DNA from: Tequatrovirus NIC06P2
Sequence record: OZ035760.1
Reading direction: 5' to 3' (one strand)
DNA length: 64,000 bases
Position numbers and translations under genes: made by a program. Shown piece by piece: positions 1,409 through 58,266 of this stretch. Position 1 is the stretch's first letter; the number at the start of each line of letters is the position of its first letter. The notes beneath the pieces are model-generated. The model searched no databases. It was not told the origin of the DNA and saw only the letters and a program-made list of their open reading frames with translations.

Positions 1409-1696
1409 TATAAATTCTCTTTTAAATGAAAATGCAGGACTTATTGGCATTGCCTGCGCAAGCCCTCAAGGGGAACATAGGTTTTGAATATTTACCGACA
1501 GGATAACCATAAACCTCGTCATCATACCACCAAGACTTACACAGATAACACTTTTCTGACGCATGATAGTAACATTCAAGAGGTACACCATAAAACTGCC
1601 GGGGTCTTAAAACTATAATGATTCGCAAATCATTAATCAGACAGTTCGATGGCTCCTCGATTTTAGCTCACACTAAGGCAGTGAATCTCCAATAAA

Positions 1697-15570: not shown

Positions 15571-16397
<827 letters not shown>

Positions 16398-16407
16398 ATT
16401 ATTTTCC

Positions 16408-16650
16408 TTAAACAGACTTTTTCACAATTTTCCAATCAGCTTTAAACTGTTCAACGTCAGAATGGTAAATCCAGAATCCTGCGCTTTCTCCATCCTCATA
16501 AAGAGGGCATCCATCACATTCACCTTCCCATCCCATACCACGTAAAAGATGTTCAGCTTTTTCAACAAGTTCAGAATCTTTACCGATGATATTAAAATAC
16601 CATTTACCTCTAACTTCTGAATCTTTGATGCTTTGGCGTTGTAATCTCAT
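16408..16650 (-). CDS. hypothetical protein (80 aa)
   Basis: Complete ORF with early promoter/leader upstream. Confidence 0.5.
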   Translation of the reverse strand: MRLQRQSIKDSEVRGKWYFNIIGKDSELVEKAEHLLRGMGWEGECDGCPLYEDGESAGFWIYHSDVEQFKADWKIVKKSV

Positions 16651-16705
16651 TTTATTCTCCTTAGTTGATAGGGTAATAGTATCACACTACTACCCTGATG
16701 TAAAC
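16651..16705 (-). promoter_or_regulatory. early promoter and leader (GTTTAC...ATACTATTACCCTATCAACTAAGGAG)
   Basis: Conserved promoter/leader cassette repeated at other loci in this window. Confidence 0.5.
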
Positions 16706-17070
16706 TACTTTTTGAAAGTTTTTCGCAAAAGTTCAATGATTTCGTCTACATTGTTTTCATCTACAATGCAGTGAATTTTTGTTACGCCATAAACCTGGTC
16801 TTTGACTTCATCTTCTTCAGAAGTCGGTTCTTTATACTCACGAAAACAATGAAATTCGTCTTCACAAACGTTAAAGTAAAAATGCTTTCCATTTGCACAT
16901 TCAATGTGTTTTATTGCTCTAAATCCATCAGCAAAGAAAGCTTCTTTAACTTCAAACCACCCGCCATTTTCTTCAATAATTTTAACTATTGATGAATTAG
17001 AACGTGGGCGATAATTAATAAATGTATCAATAAGTCTTGGAACAAGTTCATACTTTTTGCCAATATACAT
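16705..17070 (-). CDS. hypothetical protein (121 aa)
   Basis: Complete ORF. Confidence 0.5.
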   Translation of the reverse strand: MYIGKKYELVPRLIDTFINYRPRSNSSIVKIIEENGGWFEVKEAFFADGFRAIKHIECANGKHFYFNVCEDEFHCFREYKEPTSEEDEVKDQVYGVTKIHCIVDENNVDEIIELLRKTFKK

Positions 17071-17113
17071 TACGTTTTCCTCATTTTAACGGGCTATAAT
17101 AGCCTCTTGATAA

Positions 17114-17341
17114 TTATTGTTCAATCAGTCCCATGTAAAATTCTGCGTCTTCAGAATCCATGCCATCACAATATTCATTAGCCATAAAGCGGGTGAGGTC
17201 TTCAAGAGGACCTTCAATAACGATTTGAATACTCCAATACTTAGAATCTTGCACGCTTGTGATACTAAGTTCAGGATAACGATTACGAATAATCTCTTCA
17301 ATATATTCAAAATCAACGATGTCAATATCAACTTTAGCCAT
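17114..17341 (-). CDS. hypothetical acidic protein (75 aa)
   Basis: Complete ORF downstream of the gene 32 terminator and an early promoter. Confidence 0.5.
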
Positions 17342-17415
17342 ATTATTTTTCCCCTTTAATTATCAGCAGTATTGCCGATAGTTGTATAGTACCATGGAAG
17401 GACAAGGATGTAAAC
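17342..17415 (-). promoter_or_regulatory. early promoter and leader (GTTTAC ... GGTACTATACAACTATCGGCAAT)
   Basis: GTTTAC -35 with downstream conserved leader; follows the gene 32 terminator. Confidence 0.5.
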
Positions 17416-17440
17416 CGTTTTGTGAAAAAATTTTTGAAAT

Positions 17441-17465
17441 AAAAAAGGGGACCTCTAGGGTCCCC
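17441..17465 (-). terminator. intrinsic terminator downstream of gene 32
   Basis: ggggacc-ctag-aggtcccc stem-loop followed by T6 on the minus strand directly after the gene 32 stop. Confidence 0.8.
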
Positions 17466-17487
17466 AATTAATTAGTAATATAATCTA

Positions 17488-18396
17488 TTAAAGGTCATTC
17501 AAAAGGTCATCTAGGTCCGTGTCATCAGCACTAGATGAACTGCCAGAGCTTGAGCTCATAAAATCATCTTCAGTTTTTGTATTGAAGTCATCAACATTGA
17601 ATGCATCCAAATCATCAGCAACTTTATCAGCTTTCTTAGCAGCAGTTGCAGCGGCACCGCCCATCACAGCAGTTCCCATGACTTGACCGAATTTAGTGCT
17701 CAGTTCTTCAAACGATTTGAATTTATCTTTAGAAGTCATTTCAGAAAGGTCAACCATTTGTTCGAACAGTTCTTTCTGGAAAGATTCATCGTCAATGTTT
17801 GGAATCGCAGATTGATTCAGGAATTTAGATTCGTCGTAGTTACTAAATCCAGAAACCTGTTTAACTTTCAGTACAAAGTTAGCACCTTCCCACGGACAAG
17901 TTACATCAACTGGAGTTTCACCCATTTCAACATCAACCGCAATCATCGCGTTGATTTTATCCCAGATTTTCTTACCGAAGCGGTATTTAAATACTTTACC
18001 TTCGTTTTCTGGAGCAGCTGGGTCTTTTACAACAAGAATGTTAGCCCAGTAAGAAGTTTTACGTTTAACAAGACTGTACTCTTTATTGTCAGTGTTGTAC
18101 AGATCATTTTTACTGATGTATTGACATACTGGGCAAGAATCGTAATCACCGTGGGTAGATGAACATGTTTCAATATACCATTTACCATTTTTCTTGAAAC
18201 CGTGATTTACAAGAATTGCGAATGGTGCTTGTTCATCATTTTTAGACGGAAGAAAACGAATTACTGCTTGACCGTTACCCGCATTGTCGAGTTTCAGTTT
18301 CCACTCGCCTTTATCTTCAGAAGAAAAACCACCTTTATTTCCAGCCAGTTTAGCCATTTGTGCAGCGAGTTCAGCAGTAGATTTACGTTTAAACAT
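17488..18396 (-). CDS. 32: single-stranded DNA-binding protein gp32 (302 aa)
   Basis: Matches T4 gp32 including the zinc-binding region (H...[14 protein letters not shown]) and the acidic Ser/Asp-rich C-terminal tail. Confidence 0.95.
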
Positions 18397-18456
18397 TTTT
18401 ATTTCCTTTTTAATTTAATTAACAGTTGGTGCTATGACGATGTATGACCTCATAGC
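18397..18456 (-). promoter_or_regulatory. gene 32 translational operator (A/U-rich unstructured leader plus upstream pseudoknot hairpin)
   Basis: Leader reads UUAAUUAAAUUAAAAAGGAAAUAAAA-AUG, preceded by stem gcuauga...ucauagc; this is the known gp32 autoregulatory architecture. Confidence 0.65.
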
Positions 18457-18495
18457 TGGTCAGTGAGATAATTATAATCTATTTATAACAAGCAA

Positions 18496-19149
18496 TTAAT
18501 ACTTACAAGATTTCACAGTTTCAATGAAAACATTTTTAGCTTTCTGTGAATCAATATTTAAAATTTTTCTATAAGCCTTTAACTTTATAGAATAATTATT
18601 CCAGACTAAATTATCAGTCTGATCATCATGTTTATCAATTATATTTAAAAACGAATCAAGCAAGATAAACGTCTCAAACGAAATTATGTTCGATTGTAGA
18701 AGTTTAAAAATATAACTTGATTGAACTTTTGGATTATACTCAAAGATTTCTTTAAAAGCAGAAACTTCAACTTTTTTACTAAAATAATAAATGTTGCGAA
18801 TATCTTCTTCAAACTTAAATTTAATTTGCTTTAAGCGTCCGATATATTCACGATAAAACACAAGTGCATCAGCGTCAGAGATGTCACCAATCCAAGCATC
18901 TTGGTTAGCAACCAAATTACTTATAAAGATTAAAGCAAGTTCCTTTAATTTATATTTTTCTGATAACTTCTGGAAAAAATACTTATCCCTTCGCTTTTGA
19001 TAAGCGGCATCAGACACCCGCATGCACCAATTATACTTAATTACATCATACTTTCCATTCATATGCTGTTTTATCATTAAGTATAATTTATAAACTGATT
19101 TACCATCAATGTATCTTTCACCACCAGCAGGCATGCGGAGTTTAATCAT
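18496..19149 (-). CDS. 59: gp59 helicase loader (217 aa)
   Basis: Matches T4 gp59 length and sequence; synteny 32-59-33. Confidence 0.9.
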   Translation of the reverse strand: MIKLRMPAGGERYIDGKSVYKLYLMIKQHMNGKYDVIKYNWCMRVSDAAYQKRRDKYFFQKLSEKYKLKELALIFISNLVANQDAWIGDISDADALVFYREYIGRLKQIKFKFEEDIRNIYYFSKKVEVSAFKEIFEYNPKVQSSYIFKLLQSNIISFETFILLDSFLNIIDKHDDQTDNLVWNNYSIKLKAYRKILNIDSQKAKNVFIETVKSCKY

Positions 19150-54819: not shown

Positions 54820-55056
54820 TTAACCACCTATTTCTGTTGGCGTAAACATTGCAGCATTCTTAGTTTTCCAGTCAGCTGCATCAGAAACTACAGTAGAATA
54901 TGCTGCCTTTTCAGAAGGAAAGGTCTGATAATGAGAATCTGCAATACGATGCTCGTTAGAATAGATTTCAAACGGAACAGAAACTTCCATACCTTTAACT
55001 TCTTTGCCTTCACCTGCTGGATGAGTAAAGGTCTTGATGTTAACGAAACCGCCCAT
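54820..55056 (-). CDS. soc: small outer capsid protein Soc (78 aa)
   Basis: Conserved Soc motifs (YVNIKTF..., HYQTFPSEKAAYSTV) and late promoter upstream. Confidence 0.9.
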   Translation of the reverse strand: MGGFVNIKTFTHPAGEGKEVKGMEVSVPFEIYSNEHRIADSHYQTFPSEKAAYSTVVSDAADWKTKNAAMFTPTEIGG

Positions 55057-55087: not shown

Positions 55088-55095
55088 TATTTATA
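55088..55095 (-). promoter_or_regulatory. late promoter TATAAATA for soc
   Basis: Plus-strand TATTTATA is TATAAATA on the minus strand, about 32 nt upstream of the soc ATG. Confidence 0.7.
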
Positions 55096-55942
55096 AACCA
55101 TTTTCAAATCTCTTTATCATGTTTATATAATTTTCGTCAGGATAACCTAGGCTAACTGCTAACTTTCTAAAATTGACATATTTAGGTTTGTTGTTATTAA
55201 TCCATAATTCTCTAAGCTCTTTTTCATAATTCCATTTAAGTTGATTTCTGCGTGCAATTTTGCTTAAAGTTTTTCCTTTAGCTTTTAAAGCTTTTTCAGA
55301 TGACTGTTTTAATTTTTGAATATTTAAAACTTCTTCTATAGATAAATTATTTTCCTTTGAATATCTTATGCAAAAATCTTTTACTACGGCTATTAGGCAA
55401 TTTTTGTGAGTACCTAAAATTTCTGGATTATTTTCTTCAACTAAAATTCCCCAATATCTTCGATAGCGAGGCATATCCCTTGAAATCCAGTCATTATACC
55501 AAAAATCAAAGTTGGAATACATGAAAGATTTTCTTTTGCGAAGAGTATCTTGGTTTATCCATTGCTCACGTTTATCAGCCCATAACTTAATAGTAAAGTC
55601 TTTCTCTAAGTCAGAAAGCTTCTTAAATTGCGAGCTATTTACTGAGGTCATTCTCTGGAATGCATTCAGCAATCCAAATCTTCCAGTTGAACATAAGAGA
55701 TAGTGAACATATATGTGTTGATATATTGGGAGATATACTCTATTCCAAGGATATGTTTTAAAATCACTGTACTCAGGAAATGCGCATTTAGGAAGTATAT
55801 GATGGGCTTCTGTTTTAGATTTAATGTGAGTGTTTAACTTATACTTATCTATAATTTTTAAATACTCATCTAAAAGTTCCCATTGCGGGAACTTTTCTTT
55901 AAGAGCAGATTTGAAATTAATATCCATTATCTTGACGTTCAA
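55091..55942 (-). CDS. putative free-standing HNH homing endonuclease (283 aa)
   Basis: HNH-like core (TEAHHILPK...N...H) near the N-terminus, basic C-terminal half; occupies the soc-56 spacer and overlaps the 3' end of gene 56. Confidence 0.5.
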   Translation of the reverse strand: MNVKIMDINFKSALKEKFPQWELLDEYLKIIDKYKLNTHIKSKTEAHHILPKCAFPEYSDFKTYPWNRVYLPIYQHIYVHYLLCSTGRFGLLNAFQRMTSVNSSQFKKLSDLEKDFTIKLWADKREQWINQDTLRKRKSFMYSNFDFWYNDWISRDMPRYRRYWGILVEENNPEILGTHKNCLIAVVKDFCIRYSKENNLSIEEVLNIQKLKQSSEKALKAKGKTLSKIARRNQLKWNYEKELRELWINNNKPKYVNFRKLAVSLGYPDENYINMIKRFENGL

Positions 55943-56435
55943 AATTATGTTTGTTCTTCAGATAATAAAGTTTAAAGATTTCTTCTGCTGTAAGACCAAG
56001 ACCTTGGAACATGTTCAGAACAAAATGAAGAATATCAATCATTTCGAATTTAATTTCTAACTGATCCTGTGGAGACAAATCAGTAATCAAAGTTTCACGG
56101 CGTTCACCATGCTGCGACTTCCAAGGTTTCCATACAGCAGATGCATCTTTTTCGCCATTGCTCATACCGCCAAGAGAAGTTAGAAGTTCGCGGAATTCAT
56201 CATCAATATAATCTTTCTGATTACGCAGCCAATCAACAACTTCACCTGCGGTAGCCAAATCATCAGGATGACGGTTATATTCAGGTTTATCTTTAGCTAA
56301 ACGAATCTGTAAAGATTTCTGCATATCAAGCATTACCTGCAGCGGGTCTTTTTCATCACCGAGAATATCCCAATATTCATTTTGAGCTTTATCAGCGCCT
56401 TCGATCAGTTGACTACATTCGTTGAAATGTGGCAT
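55917..56435 (-). CDS. 56: dCTPase/dUTPase gp56 (172 aa)
   Basis: Matches T4 gp56 size and sequence (MazG-like NTP pyrophosphatase). Confidence 0.9.
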   Translation of the reverse strand: MPHFNECSQLIEGADKAQNEYWDILGDEKDPLQVMLDMQKSLQIRLAKDKPEYNRHPDDLATAGEVVDWLRNQKDYIDDEFRELLTSLGGMSNGEKDASAVWKPWKSQHGERRETLITDLSPQDQLEIKFEMIDILHFVLNMFQGLGLTAEEIFKLYYLKNKHNFERQDNGY

Positions 56436-56508
56436 GTTATTTTTCCTTTCAATTCATGGGTTAGTAGATTAATTATACAATAAATATATAAAGCAATAAG
56501 GAGGACAT

Positions 56509-56709
56509 ATGGTACAAAAATTAATGGCACTTGTTAATGCCATAAAAGGTAATAAGAAACGTATAGCTTTTACTATTTCTGCTATGGTAGGAATTTTACT
56601 CTGGAACTTTATTCTATCACCTGTTGCAATTGCACATGGTATTAATATTCCAGTAGTTACTCTTGATACATTTGTAGATTTAGCATTTGCTTTAGTTGGG
56701 TTGATTTAA
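56509..56709 (+). CDS. small membrane protein on the plus strand (66 aa)
   Basis: Strong AAGGAGG Shine-Dalgarno 7 nt upstream of the ATG; two hydrophobic segments; convergent with gene 61, stops overlap. Confidence 0.45.
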   Translation: MVQKLMALVNAIKGNKKRIAFTISAMVGILLWNFILSPVAIAHGINIPVVTLDTFVDLAFALVGLI

Positions 56710-57734
56710 ATCTTAGCATATTTAGATAGCCGCATTTTAGCCATCAACCCCTGTGCAATATTATTTTTCATATATTCCATAATTTGTTCAGGGGTTGCAC
56801 CTTCCTTTCTAATCATATCATTAACATCTTTTGATTTCCAGGGAGATTTATCCCAAAACATAACCCTTTCTCCTGCATCAACTAATTTAGTCATTCGTTT
56901 AATAGTGTCAGGGTGACGAGGTTCATTATCTAAAACCCACACTCGTCTATCTTTAAATGGAACAACTTCTAGGTCTAATTGACCACCCGTAATAGCTATA
57001 CCATTTTCAATAAAAAGTGAATCTATAGGTCCTTCTAGAACATATACATCACCATCTTTAACTCGTTCGACTCCATAGATTTTTGTTGCCTCAGGATAAG
57101 CTTTGATGGTGATATATTTTTGAGGAGCATCTTTCTTTAATGCGCGTCCTTGAAAAGACTCAGCTTTTCCATTAGCATTATAAATTGGAATAACAAGACG
57201 AGGCTCAGAAATTTCCTTTTTATATGTTCCCGGTGCTATGCTATTAACCAATTTAGGCCATTCGGTTGTAAACCAAAGATATTTCCATTTATCCTTTGGA
57301 ATACAACGAGCTTTTACATATTTTATAATTGGATGGTCTTCCGCCAGTTTATCTAATCTAACACATGACGGAAGAGATTTAATTATTTTCTTCTCAGGTT
57401 GTTTAGGAAGTTCTTTAGGTTTTTCTACTGGACGACTTTTACCTTTTTCTTTTCTTATTTCAAAGATATACTCACGATATAAATCAGGTTCAAACTCCTT
57501 TAAATATATTCCGATTGGTGCATGATAGTTACAGTTATAACAATGAATATTTCCTTCATTATTATCACCATAATACCATCCACGAGCTTTATTCTGGTCT
57601 GTTTTTGAATCTCCACAAACAGGGCATCTAAACCGTAATTTAAAAGTTGAACTATTATTTACTTGTGTGAATTTAGGTAAATGAGCTAATGCACGGTATG
57701 CGAACTCATTATCAATCCAAGGTATTGATGACAT
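56706..57734 (-). CDS. 61: DNA primase gp61 (342 aa)
   Basis: N-terminal zinc-ribbon (CPVCGD...CYNC) and TOPRIM region; T4 gp61 length. Confidence 0.9.
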   Translation of the reverse strand: MSSIPWIDNEFAYRALAHLPKFTQVNNSSTFKLRFRCPVCGDSKTDQNKARGWYYGDNNEGNIHCYNCNYHAPIGIYLKEFEPDLYREYIFEIRKEKGKSRPVEKPKELPKQPEKKIIKSLPSCVRLDKLAEDHPIIKYVKARCIPKDKWKYLWFTTEWPKLVNSIAPGTYKKEISEPRLVIPIYNANGKAESFQGRALKKDAPQKYITIKAYPEATKIYGVERVKDGDVYVLEGPIDSLFIENGIAITGGQLDLEVVPFKDRRVWVLDNEPRHPDTIKRMTKLVDAGERVMFWDKSPWKSKDVNDMIRKEGATPEQIMEYMKNNIAQGLMAKMRLSKYAKI

Positions 57735-57736
57735 TT

Positions 57737-57901
57737 TTACTCTTCTTTTTCTTTAGATTCCTCTTTTTTCTTTTTAGGAATCTGTTCAGGACCTTTATTT
57801 ACTACAGCGCCTGACGTTGTTCCAGTAGAGATATTTTCAGGACTACCACCTGAATCTCCAGCGACCATATCTTCTTTGATAAATTCTTTAAACGTTTTCA
57901 T
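57737..57901 (-). CDS. small ORF (54 aa; 61.1 position)
   Basis: Hand-translated MKTFKEFIKEDMVAGDSGGSPENIST...KKKEESKEKEE; stop abuts the gene 61 start. Confidence 0.4.
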   Translation of the reverse strand: MKTFKEFIKEDMVAGDSGGSPENISTGTTSGAVVNKGPEQIPKKKKEESKEKEE

Positions 57902-57913
57902 ATTAGCCTCTAA

Positions 57914-58207
57914 TTATTCACCTACCACTTCAGCGATGATATTTTTATTATTAAAGTTTTTATCACAATACAGAACGTAATTATACTGCATTACACCACC
58001 AGACTTAAGCTGTTTTTGCACTTCAGCTTTCATTTCAGGACGATCACGCTCAACGATATTCATAATATCTGCTTCAATTTGAGTTTCAACCTCAGTCTGA
58101 TCCGCAGTCATAGACCATTCGCACAAATCTTTATCATAACCTGCCATAGCAGGCTGAGCAGCACAAGAAGCTAAAGCAAAAATTGTAGCAAAGATAAATT
58201 TTTTCAT
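57914..58207 (-). CDS. sp: Spackle periplasmic protein (97 aa from MKKFIFAT; signal peptide)
   Basis: Signal peptide MKKFIFATIFALASCAAQPAMA; size and position (61.3 locus) match T4 Sp; track ORF start lies in the promoter region. Confidence 0.6.
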   Translation of the reverse strand: MKKFIFATIFALASCAAQPAMAGYDKDLCEWSMTADQTEVETQIEADIMNIVERDRPEMKAEVQKQLKSGGVMQYNYVLYCDKNFNNKNIIAEVVGE

Positions 58208-58266
58208 GATTAATCTCCTCAGTAGTTTATGTTTATATAGTATCTCAATTTCCAATAAAAGTAAAC
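58208..58266 (-). promoter_or_regulatory. candidate early promoter and leader upstream of sp
   Basis: GTTTAC at 58261-58266 (reverse complement) with A/T-rich -10 and GAGG Shine-Dalgarno. Confidence 0.45.

Follow-up and report, generated by a model that had tools for sequence, protein, structure and literature searches.

A short open reading frame (ORF) that points against its neighbors raises the question of whether it is a gene at all and, if so, when it would be expressed and what its product might do during infection. Such an ORF, of 66 codons, lies between genes 56 and 61 of Tequatrovirus NIC06P2 (sequence record OZ035760.1), within the 64,000-nucleotide stretch of DNA that was analyzed (the window). 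The original prediction saw in it a small membrane protein standing in place of dam, regarded its antisense orientation as unusual, and offered superinfection exclusion, lysis timing or anti-defence as possible roles. The analysis presented here favors a real membrane-protein gene that is driven by a late promoter, a reading that we consider quite likely.

Organization of the 56-61 junction

The window region comes from a Tequatrovirus (T4-type) phage, and the 1.9 kb around the ORF are 96-98% identical to Yersinia phage fPS-2, phage Kha5h, RB51 and hundreds more. By a combination of Pfam matches and comparison with T4, the gene order on the minus strand is 41, dmd, a DUF7279 gene, sp, 61.1, 61, 56, a 283-aa ORF and soc. 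The Pfam matches were to the families Dmd, T4_Spackle and dUTPase_2, together with a weak match of gene 61 to DNAG_N (23.4 bits, under the family cut-off of 26 bits). The coordinates of the features discussed are collected in Table 1.

Table 1. Features in and around the gap between genes 56 and 61 (window coordinates)
Feature	Position	Strand	Sequence, basis or remark
66-codon ORF, ATG start	56509..56709	+	MVQKLMALVNAIKGNKKRIAFTISAMVGILLWNFILSPVAIAHGINIPVVTLDTFVDLAFALVGLI; ORF list; stop included
Gene 56 (dCTPase/dUTPase)	55917..56435	-	ORF list; Pfam dUTPase_2; dCTP pyrophosphatase label in relatives
Gene 61 (DNA primase)	56706..57734	-	ORF list; nearly identical to T4 gp61; convergent with the 66-codon ORF
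Gap between genes 56 and 61	56436..56705		270 bp
Overlapping stop codons	TAA 56707-9; TAA 56708-6	+; -	TTAA
Variable slot	56436-56508		insertion hotspot (window compared with L001, L004, L009 and L018)
T4 late-promoter-like octamer	56479..56486	+	AATAAATA; consensus TATAAATA, variant with A at -13; 22 nt before ATG
Probable transcription start	near 56492	+	predicted from the octamer
Shine-Dalgarno sequence	56497..56504	+	TAAGGAGG; sequence; spacer of 4 nt to ATG
Middle-promoter-like element for gene 56	56472..56496	-	MotA-box-like TTGCTTTA at 56489-56496, 11-nt spacer, TGTATAAT at 56472-56479; read from sequence
Terminator-like hairpin followed by TAATTTTT	56524..56543	-	downstream of gene 61; inside ORF codons 6-12
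sp	57914..58255	-	Pfam T4_Spackle
283-aa ORF	55091-55942	-	overlaps the 3' end of gene 56
Soc (small outer capsid protein) homolog	54820-55056	-	47% identity to T4 Soc

Several elements of the original description were confirmed by these coordinates, namely the separation of genes 56 and 61 by about 270 bp, the placement of the ORF on the strand opposite to both of them, the overlap between its stop codon and that of gene 61 (the two coding sequences share 4 nt), and the strength of its Shine-Dalgarno (SD) sequence, whose AAGGAGG core occurs just twice on the plus strand of the window. Gene 56 points away from the promoter region of the ORF. Spurious ORFs of 60-95 aa are plentiful in the ORF list of this AT-rich window, so the length of the 66-aa ORF alone is not significant; the argument for a gene is built on its conservation, its synonymous-biased substitutions, the SD sequence and a promoter motif.

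A conserved gene of the T-even phages

A tblastn search with the 66-aa protein found matches in 696 phage records at E ≤ 0.01, and iterated searches with divergent copies extended this number to ~950; a locus search with the single protein returned five related loci. The orthologs are 61-69 residues in length and share 25-55% identity. In each of seven Tevenvirinae genera, counted here as Tequatrovirus, Mosigvirus, Gaprivervirus, Kanagawavirus, Moonvirus, Gelderlandvirus and the Klebsiella T4-like phages, they lie between genes 56 and 61, opposite in strand to both of these and converging on gene 61. Residues W32, N33, P38, G44, P48 and G64 are invariant among these orthologs, and A40 and L52 are nearly so. 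Among the Tequatrovirus copies, pairwise dN/dS is 0.09-0.20 and the variable sites number 7/2/13 at codon positions 1, 2 and 3; one natural variant (P0025) carries an in-frame deletion that removes three residues. In addition, the protein matches the profile phrog_2024 (E=1.4e-31; residues 2-66 against profile positions 1-65 of 65), as do all ten diverse family members that were compared with it, and this profile carries the function label 'unknown'.

The distribution of the family appears to be confined to this group of phages. A HMMER scan of 1.84 billion representatives gave nine matches, six of which were T-even orthologs or fragments, and no true homologs outside the T-even group; the other three (P0032, P0036 and P0037) are long repetitive proteins and were rejected as compositional artefacts, P0032 and P0036 after inspection. 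A word-indexed search of 5.8 billion proteins returned solely relatives that are at least 90% identical. The ORF is absent from Krischvirus RB49, in which genes 56 and 61 are 14 bp apart. Judged by these sequence comparisons, the 66-aa ORF is a real, conserved and vertically inherited Tevenvirinae gene under purifying selection, which supports the prediction of a genuine small gene convergent on gene 61; the SD sequence, the promoter motif and the hydropathy of the product, described below, also support its assignment as a membrane-protein gene.

This gene is not new, as it is already catalogued in hundreds of genomes as a hypothetical protein. Named members of the family include RB32ORF030w, RB69ORF029w (Mosigvirus) and gp16.1 of Salmonella phage S16 (Gelderlandvirus), all of them 'hypothetical protein', and they represent the same gene as the window ORF, with which they share position, strand, length and upstream motif. 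The exact protein sequence of the window has been deposited many times under this description; identity to it is 100% in RB14 (where the gene is named RB32ORF030w) and many others, 97% in T4 and ~50-55% in Mosigvirus. Nothing substantive distinguishes the window from these named relatives, and it represents the configuration that has neither dam nor a homing endonuclease in the adjacent slot.

The ORF is unannotated in the T4 records NC_000866 and AF158101 and in the original K03113; a recent record of a T4 mutant includes it. The T2 RefSeq record likewise lacks an annotation of the ortholog, which is also present yet unannotated in Enterobacter phage IME523 and Edwardsiella phage PEi20 (Kanagawavirus; loci L004, 2468..2677, and L011, ~1420..1600). 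No paper that mentions the ORF was found, nor any transcript, ribosome-footprint or proteomic record for it in the searchable literature. The absence of the ORF from the T4 reference annotation despite decades of genetics suggests that it is probably dispensable under laboratory conditions, and genetic screens or omics studies that rely on NC_000866 and AF158101 presumably miss it.

Relationship to dam and the adjacent variable slot

The statement that T4 carries dam between genes 56 and 61 was correct, as NC_000866 places gene 56 at 16270-16785, dam at 16846-17625 and gene 61 at 17935-18963. The absence of dam from this junction in the window also proved right: the gap holds no methyltransferase ORF, and a tblastn search with T4 Dam gave no match at E ≤ 1 in the 64-kb window. 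The further notion that the ORF is present instead of dam has to be abandoned. The 310-bp gap between dam and gene 61 in T4 holds the same ORF (NC_000866 17738..17938, corresponding to L001 4239..4439), which differs by the two conservative substitutions A25T and I45V and overlaps gene 61 in the same way, and since T4 carries both dam and the ORF, the latter is no replacement for the former.

Dam instead occupies a variable slot between gene 56 and the 66-aa ORF. This slot is empty in the window. In T4 it is filled by dam, fPS-2 and PYPS2T-type phages have a homing endonuclease there, and Kanagawavirus and Moonvirus have a MazG-like NTP pyrophosphohydrolase. DNA similarity between T4 and the window restarts 11 nt upstream of the ATG of the ORF, so that the dam indel ends right at its ribosome-binding site. 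T4-type dam DNA is found in 184 phage records and the ORF, at 90% protein identity or more, in ~500, which indicates that the dam-less state is the commoner one. The locus as originally described is an ordinary finding, a known hypothetical-protein family in its usual place next to a junction whose lack of dam is the majority state among the T4-type genomes in the collection. It was also observed that T4 dam is flanked on both sides by similar promoter-like sequences of the form 'aattata(c/t)a'.

A late-type promoter upstream of the ORF

The T4 late promoter is defined by TATAAATA at -13 to -6, and of the 50 T4 sites that have been listed, 32 match it perfectly, while A at -13, present in nine, is the commonest variant (PMC2988020). 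The octamer upstream of the window ORF, AATAAATA, supplies an element of this type at about -13 to -6 before a short leader, as is characteristic of a T4 late gene. An octamer of the form NNTAAATA is found 12-22 nt upstream of the ATG at all 11 of the orthologous loci compared, representing seven genera, and it is followed in each of them by a GGAGG-type SD sequence at the same spacing; the flanks of these elements are not alignable between genera. The window, fPS-2 and Mosigvirus have AATAAATA, T4 has GATAAATA, and Gaprivervirus, PEi20 and the Klebsiella phage have CATAAATA; Moonvirus and S16 (Gelderlandvirus) have ATTAAATA, which deviates at -12/-11, and Enterobacter phage IME523 has a perfect TATAAATA. 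The octamer is off consensus at -13 in most genera, a position at which T is poorly conserved in T4-like phages (PMC1524935). The plus strand of the 64-kb window has only 25 occurrences of TAAATA, which puts the probability of a chance match in such an 11-nt span at ~0.4% per locus.

No sigma-70-like promoter was detected upstream of the ORF on the plus strand within the 56-61 gap. Early and middle transcripts of T4 all run counterclockwise, and late transcripts can have either polarity (PMC2988020), so the view that the antisense orientation of the ORF is unusual was not upheld once a late-promoter-like octamer had been found at all of the orthologous loci compared. The simplest reading of these sequence elements is that the ORF is a stand-alone late gene set among early and middle genes.

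Overlapping signals on the minus strand

The region upstream of the ORF also appears to contain a promoter for gene 56. The plus-strand late octamer sits within the spacer of a minus-strand middle-promoter-like element (Table 1), and the leader predicted for the ORF covers its MotA-box-like sequence. A middle promoter was predicted at the homologous position by the annotators of fPS-2, and the T4 record places oriA and a primer transcript at the 5' end of gene 56, where the equivalent T4 promoter upstream of 56 is tied to oriA. If both are active, the back-to-back late and middle-like promoters would be used at different times.

A second minus-strand signal, the terminator-like hairpin downstream of gene 61, lies within the 5' codons of the ORF. 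Its 8-bp stem has three GC pairs and a dG of -8.9 kcal/mol, T4 and the window do not differ in its sequence, and the fPS-2 annotation places a terminator at its position. The number of terminator-like sites in the region is not above shuffle expectation, and no convincing equivalent of the hairpin was found in Mosigvirus, Gaprivervirus or the Klebsiella phage. Together, the overlap of opposite-strand promoters and the placement of a gene 61 terminator-like hairpin in the ORF illustrate how tightly signals are packed at this junction.

Predicted properties of the protein

Residues 1-18 of the product contain five Lys/Arg and no acidic residues, and residues ~19-42 are hydrophobic, with a best 19-mer Kyte-Doolittle value of 2.0. 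The last 24 residues are moderately hydrophobic, include two Asp and end in ...DLAFALVGLI. An AlphaFold2 (AF2) model built from a 17-sequence alignment has helices at residues 2-12, 16-42 and 52-63 and a mean pLDDT of 81. The original claim of two hydrophobic segments therefore stands in part, in that there is one clear transmembrane stretch (~19-42), but the second segment is a short C-terminal helix (52-63) that carries two Asp. In the five orthologs profiled, the first 20 residues contain four or five K/R (four in IME523 and in Klebsiella phage Roth76), and none is found past residue 20 except one in Roth76. Under the positive-inside rule, this distribution makes it likely that the N terminus is inside, that the protein spans the membrane once and that its C-terminal part lies outside; we infer from the sequence and the model a single-span, N-in protein of the inner membrane.

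The hydrophobic core of ~24 residues contains the invariant W-N pair, and a P38-x-A40-x-(A/S/T)42 pattern is present that would also fit cleavage by signal peptidase. The location of the invariant W-N pair in mid-span argues for a role of the helix itself, probably in helix-helix contact, beyond that of a targeting signal. Searches of Pfam, NCBIfam and PDB sequences with the single protein and with ten diverse members gave no meaningful match (the only ones, at E ~0.02-0.6, were to unrelated hydrophobic segments), and in a Foldseek comparison of the AF2 model with BFVD, family members alone scored and everything else had E>1.

Alternative explanations for the locus

Since spurious ORFs of 60-95 aa are common in the window, the ORF might have arisen by chance in an AT-rich intergenic spacer, but the comparative data effectively refute this idea, and the evidence from conservation, selection, the SD sequence and the promoter is all against it, leaving it a negligible probability. 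A different proposal is that the functional element is RNA, with the late promoter producing a transcript antisense to the 3' end, or perhaps all, of gene 61 that helps to shut off early and middle expression, and with the ORF being incidental. The stop codons of the ORF and gene 61 do overlap, and the plus strand showed no terminator-like site from 56709 to 57900, so that a late transcript probably extends antisense into gene 61. Against this proposal stand the synonymous-biased substitution in the frame of the ORF (dN/dS 0.09-0.2) and the invariant residues, strong SD sequence and kept length across seven genera at 25-55% identity. Moreover, the ORF is still intact in Gaprivervirus and the Klebsiella phage, where it stops 108 and 18 nt, respectively, short of gene 61. 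An antisense effect could coexist with the protein, but it does not explain conservation at the protein level, and we regard the RNA as the sole functional element as highly improbable. Slightly less credible again is a holin or pinholin-type protein that makes a lethal membrane lesion. The product is small, presumably late and has one transmembrane helix (by hydropathy and AF2 helix 16-42), the Gaprivervirus ortholog is labelled 'holin family protein' in GenBank, and UniProt lists the OE5505 ortholog as 'Holin'; these labels appear to result from automated propagation. No Pfam or NCBIfam holin model matches at E ≤ 10, and the PHROG is one of unknown function. Holins typically have a charged hydrophilic tail, whereas the C terminus here is hydrophobic and uncharged (...ALVGLI) and the basic residues are all N-terminal, and T4-type phages already use holin T. 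The neighbors are a dCTPase and a primase and include no endolysin, a point that discriminates poorly because T4 lysis genes are scattered. A dual start like that of lambda S (M1/K4/M6) was considered and rejected, as M6 is not conserved outside Tequatrovirus.

The two remaining alternatives are improbable to a lesser degree. In one, the hydrophobic stretch would serve as a Sec signal peptide that is cleaved off, or as a signal-anchor that can be released, leaving as the active product the ~24-residue C-terminal peptide HGINIPVVTLDTFVDLAFALVGLI in the periplasm or outer leaflet. Several features fit such a signal, namely a basic n-region, a hydrophobic core, the invariant Pro38 and small residues at -3 (the nearly invariant A40) and -1 (A/S/T42), located before a conserved (H/Q/Y/N)-G. 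The hydrophobic stretches of the Mosigvirus and Klebsiella proteins are weakly hydrophobic and rich in Ala, Gly and Thr, much like SAR domains, of which T4 RI has an example. The core of ~24 residues is nevertheless long for a cleaved signal, and it contains the invariant W32-N33 even though signal cores are not normally conserved by residue; processing of this kind has a small chance of being correct. An anti-defence or superinfection-exclusion factor, as originally suggested, has a marginally smaller one. Exclusion is exerted by the small phage membrane proteins Imm and Sp of T4, sp itself lies ~1.2 kb away, and the slot adjoining the ORF is a hotspot for accessory genes. Like the ORF product, Imm and Sp are small phage envelope proteins, and the Sp gene belongs to the same cluster, but they are early or middle genes on the other strand that have no similarity to the ORF, which has a late promoter motif only. 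In general, the exclusion and anti-defence genes of T4 are early. The present gene is fixed, syntenic and slowly evolving in the subfamily and not a variable accessory, and no PHROG, Pfam or NCBIfam entry links it to a function.

A proposed role for the late membrane protein

The preferred explanation, a late-promoter-driven gene for a membrane protein, can be extended to a working model. In this model, gp55-RNA polymerase would transcribe the gene late in infection from its own TATAAATA-type promoter, located ~15-20 nt upstream of a strong ribosome-binding site. Transcription would run opposite to that of the early/middle genes 61 and 56, and the convergent units would be used at different times. 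The product of 61-69 residues would reside in the inner membrane, with a basic amphipathic N-terminal helix (+5 charge) in the cytoplasm, one transmembrane helix that has the invariant Trp-Asn pair at its center and the invariant Pro near its outer end, and, on the periplasmic side, a conserved (H/Q/Y/N)-G...P...L-(D/E) loop followed by a short hydrophobic C-terminal helix. The invariant polar Asn in the transmembrane helix suggests that the protein may act by pairing helices within the membrane, with other copies of itself or with another membrane protein as the partner. Late timing would point to a function at the envelope, the most plausible being an influence on lysis timing or on lysis inhibition around holin T, with late protection or exclusion at the envelope being less likely.

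Late expression, as predicted from the promoter motif, favors a role in lysis or at the envelope over early exclusion or anti-defence. Taken by themselves, timing and membrane location make a role in lysis timing, lysis inhibition or late envelope control a tentative possibility that falls short of even chances. A point against a lysis role is that the known lysis genes of T4 (t, e, rI, rIII and pseT.2/3) already make up a complete set. The more specific proposal, that all T-even enterobacterial phages, T4 included, encode a late inner-membrane micro-protein that acts, by an intramembrane Trp-Asn helix contact, as a further regulator of holin T, lysis inhibition or late envelope integrity, is speculative and, on present evidence, unlikely to be right in full. 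If true, it would add a missing component to the classic lysis-timing system of T4. What lends the gene interest in any case is that it is fixed across the subfamily, is under purifying selection, and appears to be late-expressed and membrane-located.

Comparison with known lysis proteins illustrates both the appeal and the limits of this proposal. The ORF resembles the T4 antiholin RI and holin T in having a late-type promoter, a small product, an N-terminal membrane or signal-anchor segment and a C-terminal part that is predicted here to be periplasmic, and, like the ORF, the T4 lysis genes stand alone and are scattered among unrelated genes. It differs from RI and holin T in lacking detectable sequence or profile similarity to any named family and in the much shorter periplasmic part of its product (~24 residues). 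With lambda S and the S68 pinholin of phage 21, the ORF product shares size, hydrophobicity and presumed late expression, but it has one clear transmembrane helix and, unlike small holins, is without a charged tail, a conserved dual start, an endolysin neighbor or a match to a holin profile.

Other features of the region

The window straddles the conventional start of the T4 map, with ~39.5 kb of map end followed by ~24.5 kb of map beginning, and coordinate 1 of the T4 map (the rIIA end) falls at window position ~39,600. Its last 24.5 kb show at most ~96% identity to any complete genome compared. An Rfam scan of the region gave just a sub-threshold SraG match elsewhere, which was rejected. The 283-aa ORF that overlaps the 3' end of gene 56 occupies the place of segF (GIY-YIG) in T4; it had no Pfam match at E ≤ 0.001, it contains an 'HHILPK' motif, and its homologs are labelled HNH or homing endonuclease in relatives. 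Next to it, the Soc homolog has far lower identity to its T4 counterpart (Table 1) than the flanking replication genes (~96-97%), and from these sequence identities it looks like a mosaic replacement.
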